Source of the DNA: an uncultured bacterium
Lineage (GTDB): Bacteria > Patescibacteriota > Minisyncoccia > Phycocordibacterales > UBA6065
Assembly: GCA_963841935.1 (NCBI GenBank)
Contig: CAWJEP010000001.1
Coordinates: 141,302 to 205,301, forward strand
Length of the DNA: 64,000 nt
Direction: 5' to 3'
Shown: piece by piece, positions 13,844 through 19,979 of the stretch
How positions within the stretch are numbered: position 1 is the stretch's first letter
Layout: each line of letters starts with the position of its first letter
Made by a program: the position numbers and the translations under genes
The notes under the pieces: generated by a model
Databases searched by the model: none
Seen by the model: only the letters and a program-made list of their open reading frames with translations
What the model was told of the DNA's origin: nothing

Positions 13844-15900
13844 ATGGCGGATATTCCAAAAGACATCTCCTCTCGCGCCGAAAAACTGAGAAAGCTCATA
13901 GCTTTCCACTCGCGTCTCTATCACACTCTCGACAAACCTGAAATAGCGGATAGCGCGTACGACGCTTTGGTCGAAGAGCTCATAGCCATCGAGAAGAAAT
14001 ATCCCTCGCTTCAAACTTCCGATTCGCCGACCCAGAGGGTCGGCGGCGTTCCGCTCAAGGAATTTCAAAAAGTCGTTCATCAAGTTCCGCAGTGGTCTTT
14101 CAACGACGCTTTTAGCGAAGAGGACATCGCGGCCTTCGACGAACGCGTGAAAAAATTTCTCTTCGCCGCGCGCGGCAAGGCAATAACTCCTTCATACGAC
14201 TGCGAACTCAAAATCGACGGATTGAAAGTCGTTCTCGAATACGAGAAAGGCGTCTTGGTCCGCGCGGCGACGCGCGGCGACGGAGAGGTTGGCGAGGACG
14301 TCACGGCAAACGTCAGAACCATCAAGACCGTTCCTCTCCGTCTTTCTCGCGACGTGTCCGTTATCGTCGAAGGCGAGATTTGGATGAGCAAAAAAAATCT
14401 CGAGAGTCTCAATAAAAAGCGCGAGAAAGACGGAGAGCCGCTTTTTGCGAACCCGAGAAATGCCGCGGCCGGTTCCATTCGCCAACGACCGAAAATGCGG
14501 CGAGCCGAAAATGTGAACTCGACCCGAAAATCGCGGCAAGCCGAAAATTAGATAATTTCGCCTACGATTTGGCGAAAACGTCGGAGAAATTTCCGCCGAC
14601 TCAAAACGAAGAACTCGAATATCTAAAAGAGCTCGGTTTTACCGTAAATGAGCATCATGCCCTAGTTCAAAATACTGCTCAAATTATGGATTATTGGCGG
14701 CTTTGGCAGAAAAAGCGCGATAGCGTGGATTATCTTCTCGACGGCATTGTCATAAAAGTGAACGAAAAAGAATCCGAGGACGCTCTCGGCTACACCGGCA
14801 AAGCCCCTCGCTGGGCTATAGCTTTCAAATTTCCAGCGGAGCAAGTGACAACCGTCGTTAAAGATATTGTTTTTCAAGTCGGCCGCACCGGCGTCATCAC
14901 GCCCGTCGCCGTTTTTTCTCCGGTCAAAGTCGCGGGTTCTACTGTCGCGCGCGCCACGCTTCACAATGAAGACGAAATCAAACGTCTCGACGTGAGAATA
15001 GGCGACACGGTTATCATTCAGAAAGCCGGCGATGTCATTCCGGACATCGTTTCCGTGGTCAAAGAGCTTCGCACGGGAAAAGAAAAAGTTTTTTCATTCC
15101 CGACGCATGTGCCGGAGTGTGGAGGTGATGGAAAAATAGAAAGGATTCCCGGACAAGCGGCGCACAGATGCGTCGATAAAAATTCTTTTACGCTTCTTCG
15201 GAGGAAACTTCGCTACGCCACATCGAAACCGGCGCTCAACATCGACGGCATGGGTCCAAAAATAATAGATGCGTTCCTCGAGCACGGTTTGATTTCGTCT
15301 CTCCCCGATATTTTTGAATTGGAAAAAGACGAAATCCTGGAACTGCCGAGGTTTGCCGAACTTTCGGCGGAAAATATCGTCAAAGCCGTTGAAGTCGCGA
15401 GAAAAACGACATTGCCGAGACTTATCACGGCGCTTTCCATTGACCACGTCGGGGAAGAGACGGCGTATTTGCTCGCCGGACATTTCAAAACGATGGAGAA
15501 GATTCGCTCCGCGACAAAAGAAGAATTGGAAAAAATAAACGGCGTTGGCCCTGTCGTCGCGGAGTCGCTTTCGAAATGGTTCGCGGGCAAGGGGAACGGA
15601 AAAATGTTGGACAGACTTCTTTCGCACCTCAAAATCGAAAAGGCCGCGCCCGCCGTCTCGGCGGGCGCGGCCAGACTCTCTGGACTTACTTTCGTCTTGA
15701 CCGGCACACTCTCATCTCTCGAAAGAAACGAAGCCGAATCCAAAATCCGCTCCCTTGGCGGCAAAGTTTCTTCATCCGTCTCCAAGAAAACTTCGTATGT
15801 CGTCGCCGGAGCGGAACCCGGCTCAAAACTCGCAAAAGCCAATGAATTAGGCGTAAAAACCCTTACGGAACAAGACTTTTTAGCTCTATTGACAAAATAG
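13844..15900 (+). pseudogene. ligA: NAD-dependent DNA ligase LigA, reading frame broken at 14486-14517
   Basis: N-terminal part (13844-14485) has the KxDG adenylation motif [10 protein letters not shown] and ends ...[23 protein letters not shown]... continues in the +2 frame from 14518 through OB, Zn-finger, HhH and BRCT regions to 15900. The 32 intervening nt are an imperfect copy of the following 33 nt. Confidence 0.75.
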
Positions 15901-15945
15901 CCATATTTGGTATACAATACAAGCCGAGATAGAACATTGAAAAAA
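15758..15945. repeat. Direct repeat copy 1 (ligA 3' end + consensus promoter + 5'UTR start)
   Basis: About 188 bp, 97% identical to 17156-17341. Confidence 0.85.
15889..15918 (+). promoter_or_regulatory. Consensus sigma70 promoter copy 1 (TTGACA-N18-TACAAT)
   Basis: Near-perfect -35/-10 hexamers; same 60-bp module recurs at 17286 and 50698. Confidence 0.6.
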
Positions 15946-16045
15946 CGAAGGAATCGCCGCAGCTTTGAGCGACTATTTTTTGGTCTTTCAAAGCTGTAGC
16001 GAAGAGTACAGCATAACTAAAACTGTCAAGACGATTAGTAAAATT

Positions 16046-16783
16046 ATGAGCACAACCACTGCTCCTGTTGTCACCGACGGTGAACTCGCGACGCTTGCTT
16101 CACGGCAAGTTGAGCTTTTCACGCGTTTTAAGAAAGGGGTTTACGCAAATCCCTCCGAAGTGCTGGACGGTATCCAGCTTCTCATCGAAGGCAAACAGCC
16201 CGAGGTCATCCCGACGGTCGTTTCTTCGGACACGAGTTCGGTCATCTCCGACTGGCAGGACTTCTACAAGAAGTTCTTCGGTCTCAATATCGATTTGTCG
16301 GGAGTCAAAATCCCCGAACACGCCCTCGGTTTCGATCGGTTGATTGTGGTCCCGCAAGGTATCACGCTCAATCAAGTTTGGAAGGTGTGTGCAAGGCAGT
16401 TCAACTGCTGGAAATACACCGACTCTGACCTCGATAGTGCTGTTCCCACGAACAACCGAGACCCAAAGAGTGGCGCCTACGCCATCTGGGTCCGCGATGT
16501 TGTCGAAGCTGACAAGGAGATGAAGAATCTCTCGGCGGACGACCTCAAGGAAAGGACAATCAAGGGGGTCACTCTCCTCGAACGTCTACTTCTTGAGCTC
16601 AAGTATTTCTCGGAGACGGGAAAACACTTGGACATTAGCAACTGGACCCTCTGTTCGGGTTCCCGCCATTCGGGCGGCTGCGTGCCCTGTGTGCGCTGGC
16701 TCGACGGCTGGCTCAAGGTCGACTGGTACTATGTCGGCGGTCGGTACGACGACCTTCGTTCGCGTGTAGCAGTTACGCTTTAA
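16046..16783 (+). CDS. DGR target protein 1 (variable region VR1 at C-terminus; CLec/FGE-like tail)
   Basis: Paralog of the 17468 and 50810 genes (shared N-terminal helix pattern). C-terminal 100 nt pairs with the Asn-rich repeat at 17026-17127 with adenine-biased mismatches. Start could be the TTG at 15965. Confidence 0.55.
   Translation: MSTTTAPVVTDGELATLASRQVELFTRFKKGVYANPSEVLDGIQLLIEGKQPEVIPTVVSSDTSSVISDWQDFYKKFFGLNIDLSGVKIPEHALGFDRLIVVPQGITLNQVWKVCARQFNCWKYTDSDLDSAVPTNNRDPKSGAYAIWVRDVVEADKEMKNLSADDLKERTIKGVTLLERLLLELKYFSETGKHLDISNWTLCSGSRHSGGCVPCVRWLDGWLKVDWYYVGGRYDDLRSRVAVTL
16668..16769 (+). other. Candidate variable region VR1
   Basis: Aligned to 17026-17127: 25 mismatches, 21 where the partner has A. 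Confidence 0.55.
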
Positions 16784-16808
16784 GCTTTCTGCTTTTACAC
16801 TTGGTTTC

Positions 16809-18458: not shown

Positions 18459-18595
18459 ATTTGCGATTCTGACGGCAACTGGAACGTGTTCAACCTCAAG
18501 CGGGACGATTCGGAGCTCTGGCTCAACGGCAACTACAATGCCAATCCGCAGGATCGGTGGGATGTCGGCGATCGGCTTGTCTTCCGCGCTCGCAA
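18459..18595 (+). other. Template repeat TR2
   Basis: Non-coding, AAC/AAT-rich, immediately upstream of the avd/RT genes; cognate of VR2. Confidence 0.8.
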
Positions 18596-18601
18596 CCCTC
18601 T

Positions 18602-19015
18602 TCATTTCTCTCCGGATTTTTCCGGAGAGTTTTGTTTTACAATTTGTCCAAGCCATCCGCCAAGCATTTTTCCGGCTCCATCTAAAATTTCTGAAAGAGT
18701 CTCGTATTTTTTGTCGCTTATTGATTTTGTTTCCCATAGAACCATGAGAAGTATTTTTATAGTATCTATTTTTCTCGTCGCAAGTTTAATCCACGGTATT
18801 TTTTCTTCTTTCGATAAAAATGTTGCCGTTACCGTTGCTTCTATTGTTTCGATAAACAATTTATCCAGCCGATTTCCAAGCGAATATTTCTGCGTTTTTA
18901 CTAATTTCTCGTGATACTCGTGCCAGAGTTTATATGCTGATTTAATTTTCTCTACCACTGGCAAAATCGCTCGGGGGGGGGGTAGCATTTGAAGAATGGT
19001 TCGGAGCATTTTCAC
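18602..19015 (-). CDS. avd: Avd-like accessory variability determinant (four-helix bundle, 23S rRNA IVS protein family)
   Basis: KYSLGNRLDKLFIETIEAT... and C-terminal SISDKKYETLSEILDGAGKMLGGWL match the IVS/Avd helix pattern. Probable start is the third Met (about 18988). Confidence 0.6.
   Translation of the reverse strand: MKMLRTILQMLPPPRAILPVVEKIKSAYKLWHEYHEKLVKTQKYSLGNRLDKLFIETIEATVTATFLSKEEKIPWIKLATRKIDTIKILLMVLWETKSISDKKYETLSEILDGAGKMLGGWLGQIVKQNSPEKSGEK
18973..18982. repeat. G10 homopolymer (C10 on the avd coding strand)
   Basis: Ten consecutive G; encodes PPP at avd codons 3-6 and lies 14-23 nt upstream of the RT start codon. Confidence 0.9.
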
Positions 19016-19979
19016 TCATACATACGATGATATCATCTCCGTCGAAAATCTTTTAGCTGCGTGGCGTGAATTTATTCGTGGCAAGAAAAATAAAAAAGAC
19101 GTCGAAGAATTTCAGTTTCGTCTTATGGACAATATTCTCGATTTGCATCTAGATTTAAAAAACAAAACATATACTCACGGCATATATCACGCTTTCAATA
19201 TAAATGATCCTAAACCGAGAAATATTCACAAAGCCACAGTACGAGACAGATTGCTCCATCACGCTATACACAGAGTTTCATATCCATTTTTCGACAAAAC
19301 GTTTATCGCTGATTCATATTCGTGCAGATTAAATAAAGGAACTCATAAAGCAATCAAAAGATTTATTTCTTTCAGTCGAAAGGTTTCAAAAAATAACACA
19401 AAAACGTGTTGGATTTTGAAATGCGATATACGGAAATTCTTTGCGAGTATAGACCATAGGATTCTCATTTCGATTTCGAAGAAATATATTCATAACGGAA
19501 ATATTGTCTGGATTATGGAAAACATAATCGGAAGTTTTGAAACAAAAAATGGTGTCGGACTTCCACTCGGTAATCTGACATCACAACTTTTTGTGAATGT
19601 TTATATGAATGAATTCGACCAATTTATGAAACACAGAATCAAAGCGAAATATTACATTCGATATGCCGATGATTTTGTGACATTGTCGCATGACAAAAAA
19701 TATCTTGAAAATCTGATACCAAAAATTTCTAAATTTCTTTCGGAAAAATTAAGATTATCTCTTCATCCTAATAAAGTCTTCATCAAAACTTTAGCCTCGG
19801 GCGTTGACTTCCTTGGTTGGATACATTTTCCAAATCACCGAGTATTACGGACGGCAACGAAAAAGAGAATGTTCAAAAGAATTTCAGAAAATTCGAAAGA
19901 AGAGACGGTTACTTCATATATTGGAATGCTCAAGTACGGAAATGCTTACATTTTAAAAGAACACATAAAAATGCTATAG
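18996..19979 (+). CDS. DGR reverse transcriptase
   Basis: RT motifs DIRKFFASIDH (motif A), GLPLGNLTSQLFVNVYMNEFD (domain 4 with the DGR-specific [IVL]GxxxSQ), YIRYADDFV (YxDD); 327 aa. Confidence 0.85.
   Translation: MVRSIFTHTYDDIISVENLLAAWREFIRGKKNKKDVEEFQFRLMDNILDLHLDLKNKTYTHGIYHAFNINDPKPRNIHKATVRDRLLHHAIHRVSYPFFDKTFIADSYSCRLNKGTHKAIKRFISFSRKVSKNNTKTCWILKCDIRKFFASIDHRILISISKKYIHNGNIVWIMENIIGSFETKNGVGLPLGNLTSQLFVNVYMNEFDQFMKHRIKAKYYIRYADDFVTLSHDKKYLENLIPKISKFLSEKLRLSLHPNKVFIKTLASGVDFLGWIHFPNHRVLRTATKKRMFKRISENSKEETVTSYIGMLKYGNAYILKEHIKML

Follow-up and report, generated by a model that had tools for sequence, protein, structure and literature searches.

The locus between ligA and gatC/gatA in the 64-kb window studied here (the whole stretch of DNA that was analysed, taken from contig CAWJEP010000001.1 of an uncultured member of the Patescibacteria) carries a single reverse transcriptase (RT) gene together with two pairs of template repeat (TR) and variable repeat (VR), and raises the question of whether both pairs belong to one diversity-generating retroelement (DGR) or whether parts of different elements have come to lie side by side. 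As determined by open reading frame (ORF) listing and repeat finding over positions 13000-23000, together with reading of the raw sequence, the order on the plus strand is ligA, the target gene T1 (with VR1), TR1, a copy of the ligA 3' end, the target gene T2 (with VR2), TR2, avd (on the minus strand), the RT gene, gatC and gatA. The locus is most probably a chromosomal DGR of a Patescibacteria-specific clade with the order TR-(avd)-RT, in which parts of two DGR sub-lineages are combined: a complete 'A-type' unit, made up of T2/VR2, a template RNA, Avd on the minus strand and the RT, and an upstream 'B-type' half-cassette, made up of promoter P1, T1/VR1, a B-type 5' RNA domain and TR1. The element is a genuine DGR of a type that is common in the Patescibacteria, with many thousands alike. 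It is known in kind; what is noteworthy is the frameshifted VR2, the heterologous and apparently orphaned cassette, an exchange of modules that appears to be recent, and the RNA and poly-G features that recur across the clade.

The reverse transcriptase, Avd and the target proteins

The ORF at 18996-19979 contains the motifs DIRKFFASIDH, GLPLGNLTSQ and YADD, in which motif 4 has the [LIV]GxxxSQ form of the DGR clade as LGNLTSQ and the YxDD box reads YADD, and it matches Pfam RVT_1 with an E-value of 1.8e-22. At least 8000 homologues were found. Identity over most of the length is 64-78% for the best 120, one of which is a 100% match, and those among them that carry a source name are all from Patescibacteria. 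The close homologues all come from metagenome-assembled genomes of Patescibacteria, and phage-encoded RTs (ANMV-1, Vibrio phage VP585, crAss-like phages and Bordetella phages) are 33-38% identical. Among proteins of solved structure the best relative, at E = 4e-45, is 8ub7_A (328 aa, named 'Reverse transcriptase'), which is probably from the Bordetella phage bRT-Avd-RNA complex; the next solved relatives are group II and 'retron-type' RTs at 1e-21. An affiliation of the RT with retrons, group II introns or defence systems, with the repeats being ordinary duplications, is already contradicted by the data and has a negligible probability. The top NCBIfam models are indeed those for group II, Drt and retron RTs, and several sources label homologues of the RT 'retron-type'. 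However, all of these models score far below their cut-offs (135.8 against 300 for group II) in a library that apparently holds no DGR RT model, 8ub7 is ahead of the other solved structures by 77 bits, no intron RNA or other Rfam family occurs in the region, and the A-only mismatches with a conserved TR, the Avd, the C-type-lectin-fold targets and the LGxxxSQ motif are all present.

The minus-strand ORF between TR2 and the RT gene matches NCBIfam DivGenRetAVD (2.1e-15, 56.9 bits, cut-off 80) and Pfam bAvd (2.8e-9, 37.9 bits, cut-off 40); these are its sole profile matches, and the full profile length is covered. A search by sequence for a solved-structure relative of Avd found none. The order TR2 18459-18595 (+), avd 18958-18602 (-) and RT 18996-19979 (+) is that of architecture B3, TR-(avd)-RT, which accounts for 90% of the DGRs of the candidate phyla radiation (CPR), with almost no occurrence elsewhere (Wu et al., 2018; PMC5758913), and in each of the 75 related loci where avd was found, the gene is encoded by the minus strand and is located between TR and RT. 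The element also corresponds to the Patescibacteria-restricted DGR clade 2 of Roux et al. (2021; PMC8144416), in whose study this bacterial group was significantly enriched in DGRs.

The A-type repeat pair carries the signature of adenine mutagenesis. When the mismatches are tabulated by TR base, TR2 and VR2 differ by exactly 14 substitutions, all of which affect adenines of TR: 14 of the 29 A positions are changed, compared with none of the 108 non-A positions (Fisher p = 1.6e-11). The last 24 nt are identical and the last 42 nt contain one mismatch, with the two copies diverging at 18596/18131, as in the initiation of mutagenic homing (IMH) element and its IMH* counterpart; pair 1 has a similar end, with 18 identical nt followed by three differences in 8 nt. 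TR1 and VR1 differ by 27 substitutions, 22 at A (22/33 A against 5/82 non-A, p = 3.8e-11), a pair that is A-biased without being strict. The adenines fall on codon positions 1-2 in 29/29 cases in TR2 and in 31/33 cases in TR1, and the commonest codon in both TRs is AAC.

An earlier note, made from the sequence of this DNA, had proposed much of the above: its assignment of the RT to the DGR type rather than to the retron or group II type, its placing of the TR2/VR2 mismatches at adenines, its near-identical VR2 3' end and its C-type-lectin-fold targets are borne out; the host is a member of the Patescibacteria. Its description of a TR/VR pair as strictly adenine-directed holds for pair 2; in pair 1, 5 of 27 mismatches are at non-A positions. 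The Avd that it had placed at 18602-19015, with 129 aa, does match Avd, below the cut-offs, but the start at 19015 is probably too far upstream, as the relatives and the related contig L001 (see below) point to a protein of ~118 aa from near 18958; the divergent orientation of avd, which it had remarked on, is seen and is no peculiarity, being that of architecture B3.

Both targets have the C-type-lectin fold, with the VR lying in a C-type-lectin/FGE-like fold, and VR1 is in frame at the 3' end of T1, a protein that folds well. Neither T1 nor T2 matches a Pfam or NCBIfam family. The T1 family comprises more than 1000 Patescibacteria proteins, and its members are hypervariable at exactly the positions of the TR AAC codons. 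Compared with TvpA (2y3c), TaqVP (5vf4), Mtd (1yu0) and the FGE-sulfatase fold (1y4j), the targets have 7-18% sequence identity, and their N-terminal modules are unrelated to those of known DGR variable proteins. No signal peptide and no hydrophobic or transmembrane segment was found in T1 or T2 (highest 19-residue Kyte-Doolittle mean 0.84 and 1.05, respectively), and the surface or adhesion role that had been suggested for them is therefore unsupported; an absence of such segments was also reported for CPR DGR targets by Roux et al. (2021; PMC8144416). The first ~45 residues of T2 (MSELMLDVGQAQELKLAFRREGDWTNEDIKAL..., 17468-17600) are 57-80% identical in many otherwise unrelated Patescibacteria proteins of ~200 aa (P0126-P0150), the C-termini of which are likewise hypervariable, and this segment appears to be an N-terminal module that different DGR targets have in common. 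The 5' untranslated region of T2 (17337-17406), between P2 and the start codon, forms a long near-perfect hairpin with an 18-bp core (minimum free energy -45.8 kcal/mol, z = -5.06) that is identical in L001 and that none of 200 shuffles matched; it may be regulatory.

Evidence for recent homing and exchange of the A-type unit

An intact T2 homologue (P0121) is present on the ENA contig L001, which shares the order ligA, T2, TR, avd (-), RT, gatC and gatA with the window and has no T1 cassette. From 17323 to 20030 the window and L001 differ at five positions outside VR2 (~99.8% identical over 2.7 kb), and their flanking genes are 74-84% identical. TR2 is identical at 137/137 positions, while VR2 differs by 16 substitutions and one indel, with 14/16 substitutions at TR-A positions; the accumulation of differences in VR relative to the rest of the block has p = 1e-17. 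An invariant TR is thus found beside a diverged VR in two related genomes, which is the pattern that mutagenic homing predicts, and it indicates that the T2 gene has been rewritten and that the A-type unit was recently active. The comparison also indicates that the T2-TR2-avd-RT block was recently exchanged between lineages, with putative crossovers in the ligA-3'/promoter region and ~40 nt into gatC. The independent Logan contig L167 is identical to the window over 18566-19995 and reproduces avd and RT exactly.

The VR of L001 departs from the shared TR at two non-adenines (9821 and 9862). One change is G to T and the other T to G, and both lie next to or close to a mutated adenine; they may be low-frequency non-A errors of the RT. 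The ligA-DGR-gatC position is common only to L001 among the A-type relatives; a shared chromosomal site of A-type DGRs was considered and rejected, the others being elsewhere.

Compared with TR2, VR2 has one extra base at 18011/18012 (VR2 GGCGTACTGG, TR2 GGCAACTGG), ~19 nt from the 5' edge of the TR/VR homology. As a result of this 1-nt insertion the tail ...RWDVGGRLVFRARKF* lies outside the frame of the ATG at 17468, and the earlier reading of this peptide as the end of the ORF at 17468 does not hold for the sequence as it stands. In the deposited sequence VR2 is thus not in the reading frame of the T2 start, though the TR2 frame is correct and the L001 homologue is in frame; the out-of-frame ORF ends at 18160, and a product of 230 aa is on record from the source contig. 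The insertion is either a faulty homing product or 5' junction, or else a consensus artefact of a VR-heterogeneous population. A frameshift from faulty homing would be repairable by later homing, because TR2 and both homology ends are intact.

The frameshift could also be taken to be real and fixed, with T2 a pseudogene, the whole element decaying and the DGR functionless in this genome. This is improbable. The frameshift is present in the deposited sequence, with its 230-aa product, and the neighbouring ligA is also disrupted, by a 36/37-nt duplication; however, RT, Avd, TR2 and the RNA domain are intact and near-identical to those of L001, whose target is intact, the independent assembly L167 agrees exactly in avd and RT, and the next round of homing could restore the VR frame. 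Recent activity of the A-type unit is the reading that we retain. As a separate observation, a hairpin just after VR was found in 16/53 relatives compared with 8 in shuffled controls, and a post-VR hairpin or cruciform was therefore rejected as a feature of the clade.

The template RNAs and the upstream T1/TR1 cassette

In 52/53 A-type loci a hairpin and a T-run follow within ~15 nt after TR; in the window the hairpin is at 18608-18629 and is followed by TTTTGTTTT. It cannot be the terminator of avd, because it lies antisense within the last avd codons. The ~110 nt directly 5' of TR form a conserved three-helix structure in which 18/21 pairs are compensatory; 96.2% of cells are paired, compared with 75% in shuffles and 35-52% in slid controls, and there are 253 compensatory cells compared with 75 in shuffles, with 0/500 shuffles reaching the observed values. 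The single-sequence fold of the window reproduces helices P1-P3. S1, the segment just 5' of the core with the consensus AAATGAAGA, forms base pairs, with compensatory variants, with the spacer that separates TR from the stem-loop (S1', TCTTCATTT); the complementarity is 6.39 within the own locus and 5.41 between loci, and 0/2000 permutations reach the own-locus mean. The long-range duplex S1:S1' would bracket the 5' RNA domain and TR. An extended -10 element (TGnTAnnnT) is found 134-141 nt (~139) 5' of the ACTTGGT core anchor in ~20/51 related loci, with the window copy right after the T2 terminator, and is the putative promoter of the TR2 template RNA. Since the -10 element, the 5' domain, the bracketing duplex and the 3' hairpin with T-run occur together, the template RNA appears to be a discrete molecule from ~18240 to ~18640, probably a stand-alone transcript of ~400 nt.

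In many DGRs, CPR members among them, Handa et al. described an Avd-binding stem-loop just 3' of TR as well as a 'cPRT Stop' duplex of upstream and downstream sequence, in an analysis limited to 40 nt 5' of TR (10.1101/2023.10.23.563531), and the 3' part of the TR2 RNA resembles this stem-loop and duplex. Searches of Rfam, with the window at the gathering threshold and 16780-18700 permissively, gave tRNAs and chance matches only. No description of the large 5' RNA domain or of the duplex that brackets it and TR was found in Rfam 15 or in the literature searched, and one of the domain may exist elsewhere. Starting from the extended -10 element near 18224-18232, the template RNA would have the structured domain at its 5' end, followed by TR2 and a short spacer, and would close with a stem-loop of 9 bp and a U-tract. 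If the element works like its homologue in the Bordetella phage, the RT-Avd complex would bind this RNA and copy TR2 to cDNA, misincorporating opposite adenines; the cDNA would then replace VR2, with the identical 3' stretch acting as IMH, and homing would rewrite ~14-17 codon positions on the ligand-binding face of the C-type-lectin fold. The cDNA mechanism and the use of the promoter and terminator are inferred.

B-type loci have a distinct, analogous 5' domain (18/22 pairs compensatory) which has a common topology with the A-type domain and short motifs such as ...ACT.G.TG... and ...GGTG.... The covariance model R1 (A-type) has its sole real match in the window at 18352-18469 (114 bits, E = 1.6e-22), and model R2, which was built from 28 other B-type loci with the window left out, has its sole match at 16873-17025, full length (103 bits, E = 3.7e-27).

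The affiliation of the upstream cassette was assessed by comparison with 80 related genomic loci picked by RT relatives (A-type set) and 80 metagenomic T1-family loci (B-type set). No T1-family gene occurs in the 80 A-type loci. T1-family loci usually have the order T1(VR)-TR-avd(-)-RT, and their RTs and Avds are 45-56% and 22-34% identical to those of the window, respectively. Because T1-family loci carry these distant RTs and Avds and A-type loci do not contain T1, the T1/VR1/TR1 cassette belongs to another, B-type, DGR sub-lineage. Among the A-type loci, 52 contain exactly one A-biased TR/VR pair, with the TR ending ~400 nt 5' of the RT gene, and a second TR was found in 0/52.

The two cassettes are separated by a 201-nt repeat consisting of the last ~160 nt of ligA and a near-consensus promoter. 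P1 (TTGACA-18-TACAAT, 15889-15918) is a near-consensus sigma-70 promoter with a score of 11/12 and is predicted to drive T1, and P2 (TTGACA-18-TATAAT, 17286-17315), with 12/12, is predicted to drive T2; for the TR1 RNA, the scan gave no promoter with a score of 9/12 or more. The promoters of the two cassettes proposed in the earlier note are thus seen, but the cassettes do not make up one compact element, cassette 1 carrying the template-RNA domain of a different DGR sub-lineage. In a three-way alignment, repeat copy 2 is closer to the window's own ligA than to that of L001 over most of its length. Its left junction lies within the former 3' stem-loop of TR1, ATCCGC-TATTTC-GGCGG|CAAAG, where ligA reads ATCCGCTCCCTTGGCGGCAAAG; because ATCCGC...GGCGG is common to the junction and ligA, this suggests that the cassette and ligA were joined at a microhomology. 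The B-type cassette would thus end within the TR1 3' stem-loop and run into the duplicated ligA-3'/promoter segment that would now drive T2. Candidate origins are a tandem duplication followed by replacement, or a Campbell-type insertion of a circle with ligA-3'/P-T1-TR1.

TR1 keeps its 5' RNA domain and most of the bracketing duplex, and it has no 3' hairpin and T-run, which are present in 31/31 B-type loci. No second RT is found in the 64-kb window, and the cognate B-type Avd and RT are likewise absent from it. When non-A mismatches are counted by the same BLAST procedure, pair 1 has seven, whereas the 33 B-type pairs have at most five and on average 1.1. On balance, TR1/VR1 appears to be an orphan that is probably no longer diversified, its inactivity being deduced from these features.

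A single A-type RT-Avd could alternatively serve both TR1 and TR2 and diversify both targets. The A-bias is strong in both pairs, the T1 gene is intact and its product folds well, TR1 has a full-length 5' RNA domain (103 bits), the A- and B-type domains share a topology and short motifs, and a two-TR DGR is on record from Stenotrophomonas (PMC6642488). However, R1 and R2 each recognize their own type only, TR1 does not have the 3' stem-loop with T-run of 31/31 B-type and 52/53 A-type loci, the Avds cognate to the B-type templates are no more than 22-34% identical to that of the window, a second TR is absent from all 52 A-type loci with a detected pair, and the non-A mismatches of pair 1 exceed those of all 33 B-type pairs; a two-template system is therefore unlikely. 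It is very unlikely that TR1/VR1 is active in trans through a B-type RT-Avd located outside the window. Several T1-family genes elsewhere have no TR or RT within 6 kb, which means that remote targets exist, and the contig is at least 226 kb long, with less than one third of it covered by the window; but the 3' stem-loop of the TR1 RNA is truncated, the canonical B-type avd, where detected, lies directly beside TR with the RT gene next, and the window contains no other RT. The preferred reading is still that of a complete A-type unit beside a stranded B-type half-cassette.

Several points weigh against this reading. The evidence of activity comes from assembled sequences. T2 is disrupted as sequenced, and the A-type unit may now lack a functional product in this genome. 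Both Avd profile scores fall under the curated cut-offs. The A-bias of pair 1 is still strong (81%), and its decay is suggestive, since some canonical B-type pairs have up to five non-A mismatches. The intact 5' domain and most of the duplex are present in TR1, and the A-type RT-Avd might tolerate its RNA. Finally, the analysis covered 64 kb, whereas the contig measures at least 226 kb, and a B-type RT could lie elsewhere.

Two further observations concern B-type loci. In L099 (2626-6990) a T1-type target and TR lie ~1.1 kb 3' of ligA with one gene between, in a distant genome with a ligA that is 47% identical; this hints that a B-type DGR near ligA is old, or is a coincidence. An Avd homologue was undetected between TR and RT in several B-type loci (L087, L093, L103, L110 and others), with the RT gene ~100 nt after TR in L093, L102 and L143 and a gap of ~400 nt in others; such loci may represent a variant without Avd, or may encode one that has diverged too far for tblastn to detect.

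The poly-G tract, flanking genes and related systems

A run of ten G residues (G10) at 18973-18982, between avd and the RT gene, is the only G/C run of at least 7 in the window. L001 has nine G residues here (G9) and L167 has ten (G10), and a G7-G14 run occurs at the same spot in 103/112 RT-bearing loci of both sub-lineages; these 103 account for the majority of the 128 runs of this kind in the related loci (1.4 Mb). In some loci the tract is followed by a -10-like hexamer, with the RT ATG 13 nt after the tract in 15 loci, and the spacing to a putative -35 element is 14-18 nt, which is not tight; a promoter spacer or a position in a leaderless mRNA is possible. Translational phase variation of Avd via poly-C in the ORF was rejected, as an in-frame upstream start is found in 32/85 loci, approximately as expected by chance. 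Phase-variable homopolymer tracts in promoters and 5' regions are known, such as the poly-G/C tracts of porA and opc in Neisseria. Like these, the G tract lies in a short divergent intergenic region and differs in length between near-identical loci (G10 and G9); unlike them, the -35 spacing here is not tight, and the upstream in-frame start is no commoner than chance. The tract may be a hypermutable expression switch. No link of homopolymer tracts with DGRs was found in the literature searched.

Taken together, the RNA and poly-G features lead to a tentative proposal, on which we place less than even confidence: the DGRs of Patescibacteria may use a stand-alone RNA of ~400 nt with a 5' protein-recruiting domain, a bracketing duplex and a stem-loop/terminator at its end, in which the sub-lineage-specific domain could set the match between RT-Avd and template, and the near-universal poly-G tract could act as a stochastic on/off or rheostat switch for hypermutation. 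In the Bordetella phage, the recruiting role belongs to the spacer 3' of TR. If this is true, the window represents a natural mismatch experiment, with a B-type template RNA minus its 3' stem-loop beside an A-type RT-Avd.

The features of the locus are collected in Table 1.

Table 1. Positions of the repeats, genes and predicted RNA and promoter elements of the DGR locus in the window.
Feature	Position	Strand	Remarks
Repeat copy 1: ligA 3' end and promoter P1	15742-15942	+	201-nt direct repeat, 95% identical to 17139-17339
T1, 245 aa, intact	16046-16783	+	C-terminal C-type-lectin fold
VR1, 3' end of T1	16658-16772	+	359 nt offset to TR1; 27 mismatches, 22 at TR adenines
T1 intrinsic terminator (predicted)	16809-16838	+	13-bp stem, then T-run
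B-type template-RNA 5' domain, immediately 5' of TR1	16873-17025	+	Covariance model R2
TR1, template for VR1, AAC-rich (8 AAC codons)	17017-17131	+	Repeat alignment
TR1 3' stem-loop remnant, ATCCGC-TATTTC-GGCGG	17142-17158	+	No T-run after; junction with repeat copy 2
Repeat copy 2: non-coding ligA 3' fragment and promoter P2	17139-17339	+	Repeat alignment, promoter scan
T2, 222 aa with one base removed	17468-18137	+	Ends RWDVGGRLVFRARKF*; as sequenced the ORF runs to 18160
VR2, with IMH-like 24 nt identical to TR2 at its end	17993-18130	+	Repeat alignment
Hairpin after VR2, CAAGTTC-TAA-GAACTTG	18128-18144	+	
T2 intrinsic terminator (predicted)	18189-18220	+	14-bp stem, then T-run
Extended -10 element TGTTATAAT, putative TR2 template-RNA promoter	18224-18232	+	Position conservation of TGnTAnnnT
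A-type template-RNA 5' domain	18240-18469	+	Model R1; core 18352-18469 with helices P1-P3; S1 18359-18364
TR2 template repeat, 137 nt	18459-18595	+	Identical in L001
Template-RNA 3' part	18599-18638	+	S1' (TCTTCA, 18599-18604), 9-bp stem-loop with TTTT loop (18608-18629), T-run
avd, ~118 aa	18602-18958	-	Start uncertain: 18958 GTG, 18964 TTG or 18988 ATG
Poly-G tract G10, between avd and RT	18973-18982	.	
DGR RT, 327 aa	18996-19979	+	Motifs, RVT_1

Upstream of the DGR, ligA (13844-15900) reads as two ORFs because of an imperfect tandem duplication of 36/37 nt at 14492-14548, the first copy of which (CGACCGAAAATGCGGCGAGCCGAAAAT) precedes the canonical segment and shifts the frame; the ligA of L001 is intact, with 655 aa, and the split is either a real disruption or an assembly error. 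A type IV pilus-like cluster at ~6854-13837, just 5' of ligA, is syntenic with L001; the Pfam annotation of L001 gives it a platform protein (T2SSF), several prepilins (N_methyl) and a prepilin peptidase (A24). Five tRNA genes (Met, Met, Thr, Thr and Asp) are located at 22332-22765, ~2.4 kb 3' of the DGR, and this cluster is partly inverted relative to L001, as seen from a minus-strand BLAST piece.

In its general layout the locus is like the B3/clade 2 DGRs of CPR: it is chromosomal, with an inverted avd between TR and RT and a single short upstream target with a C-terminal VR, its targets have no transmembrane segment or known domain, and its RT shows 62-76% identity to those of thousands of members. 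Unlike these, it has a second target/TR cassette, derived from a different sub-lineage within this clade, without its own RT and Avd, the ligA-3'/promoter duplication and the VR2 frameshift. With the DGR of Bordetella phage BPP-1 (mtd-avd-TR-brt; PMC6182149) it has in common the adenine-specific transfer from TR to VR, Avd, the IMH-like 3' end and the stem-loop 3' of TR. It differs from BPP-1 in that avd is encoded by the opposite strand, the position of the large conserved RNA domain is 5' of TR whereas the Bordetella spacer (Sp) is 3' of TR, the RNA is apparently its own transcription unit ending ~45 nt after TR, and the targets are small and cytoplasmic-looking whereas that of the phage is a tail fibre. 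The DGR of Stenotrophomonas sp. SKA14 has two TRs and six VRs (PMC6642488) and likewise combines one RT gene with two template repeats nearby; in the window, however, the TRs have different sub-lineage-specific RNA domains, one without its 3' element, and the two-TR arrangement fits module replacement better than a designed two-template system.

In conclusion, the window and L001 form a clean natural before-and-after pair, which points both to recent mutagenic homing and to a recent horizontal replacement of a DGR module. The locus indicates that target/template cassettes can be stranded by a swap of the enzyme module, and a TR/VR pair stranded in this way would pass the A-bias criterion that is common in DGR surveys and be scored as active. 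The clade-wide 5' RNA domain, the TR duplex and the poly-G tract, if functional, bear on template specificity and on the timing of hypermutation in the DGRs of the Patescibacteria.

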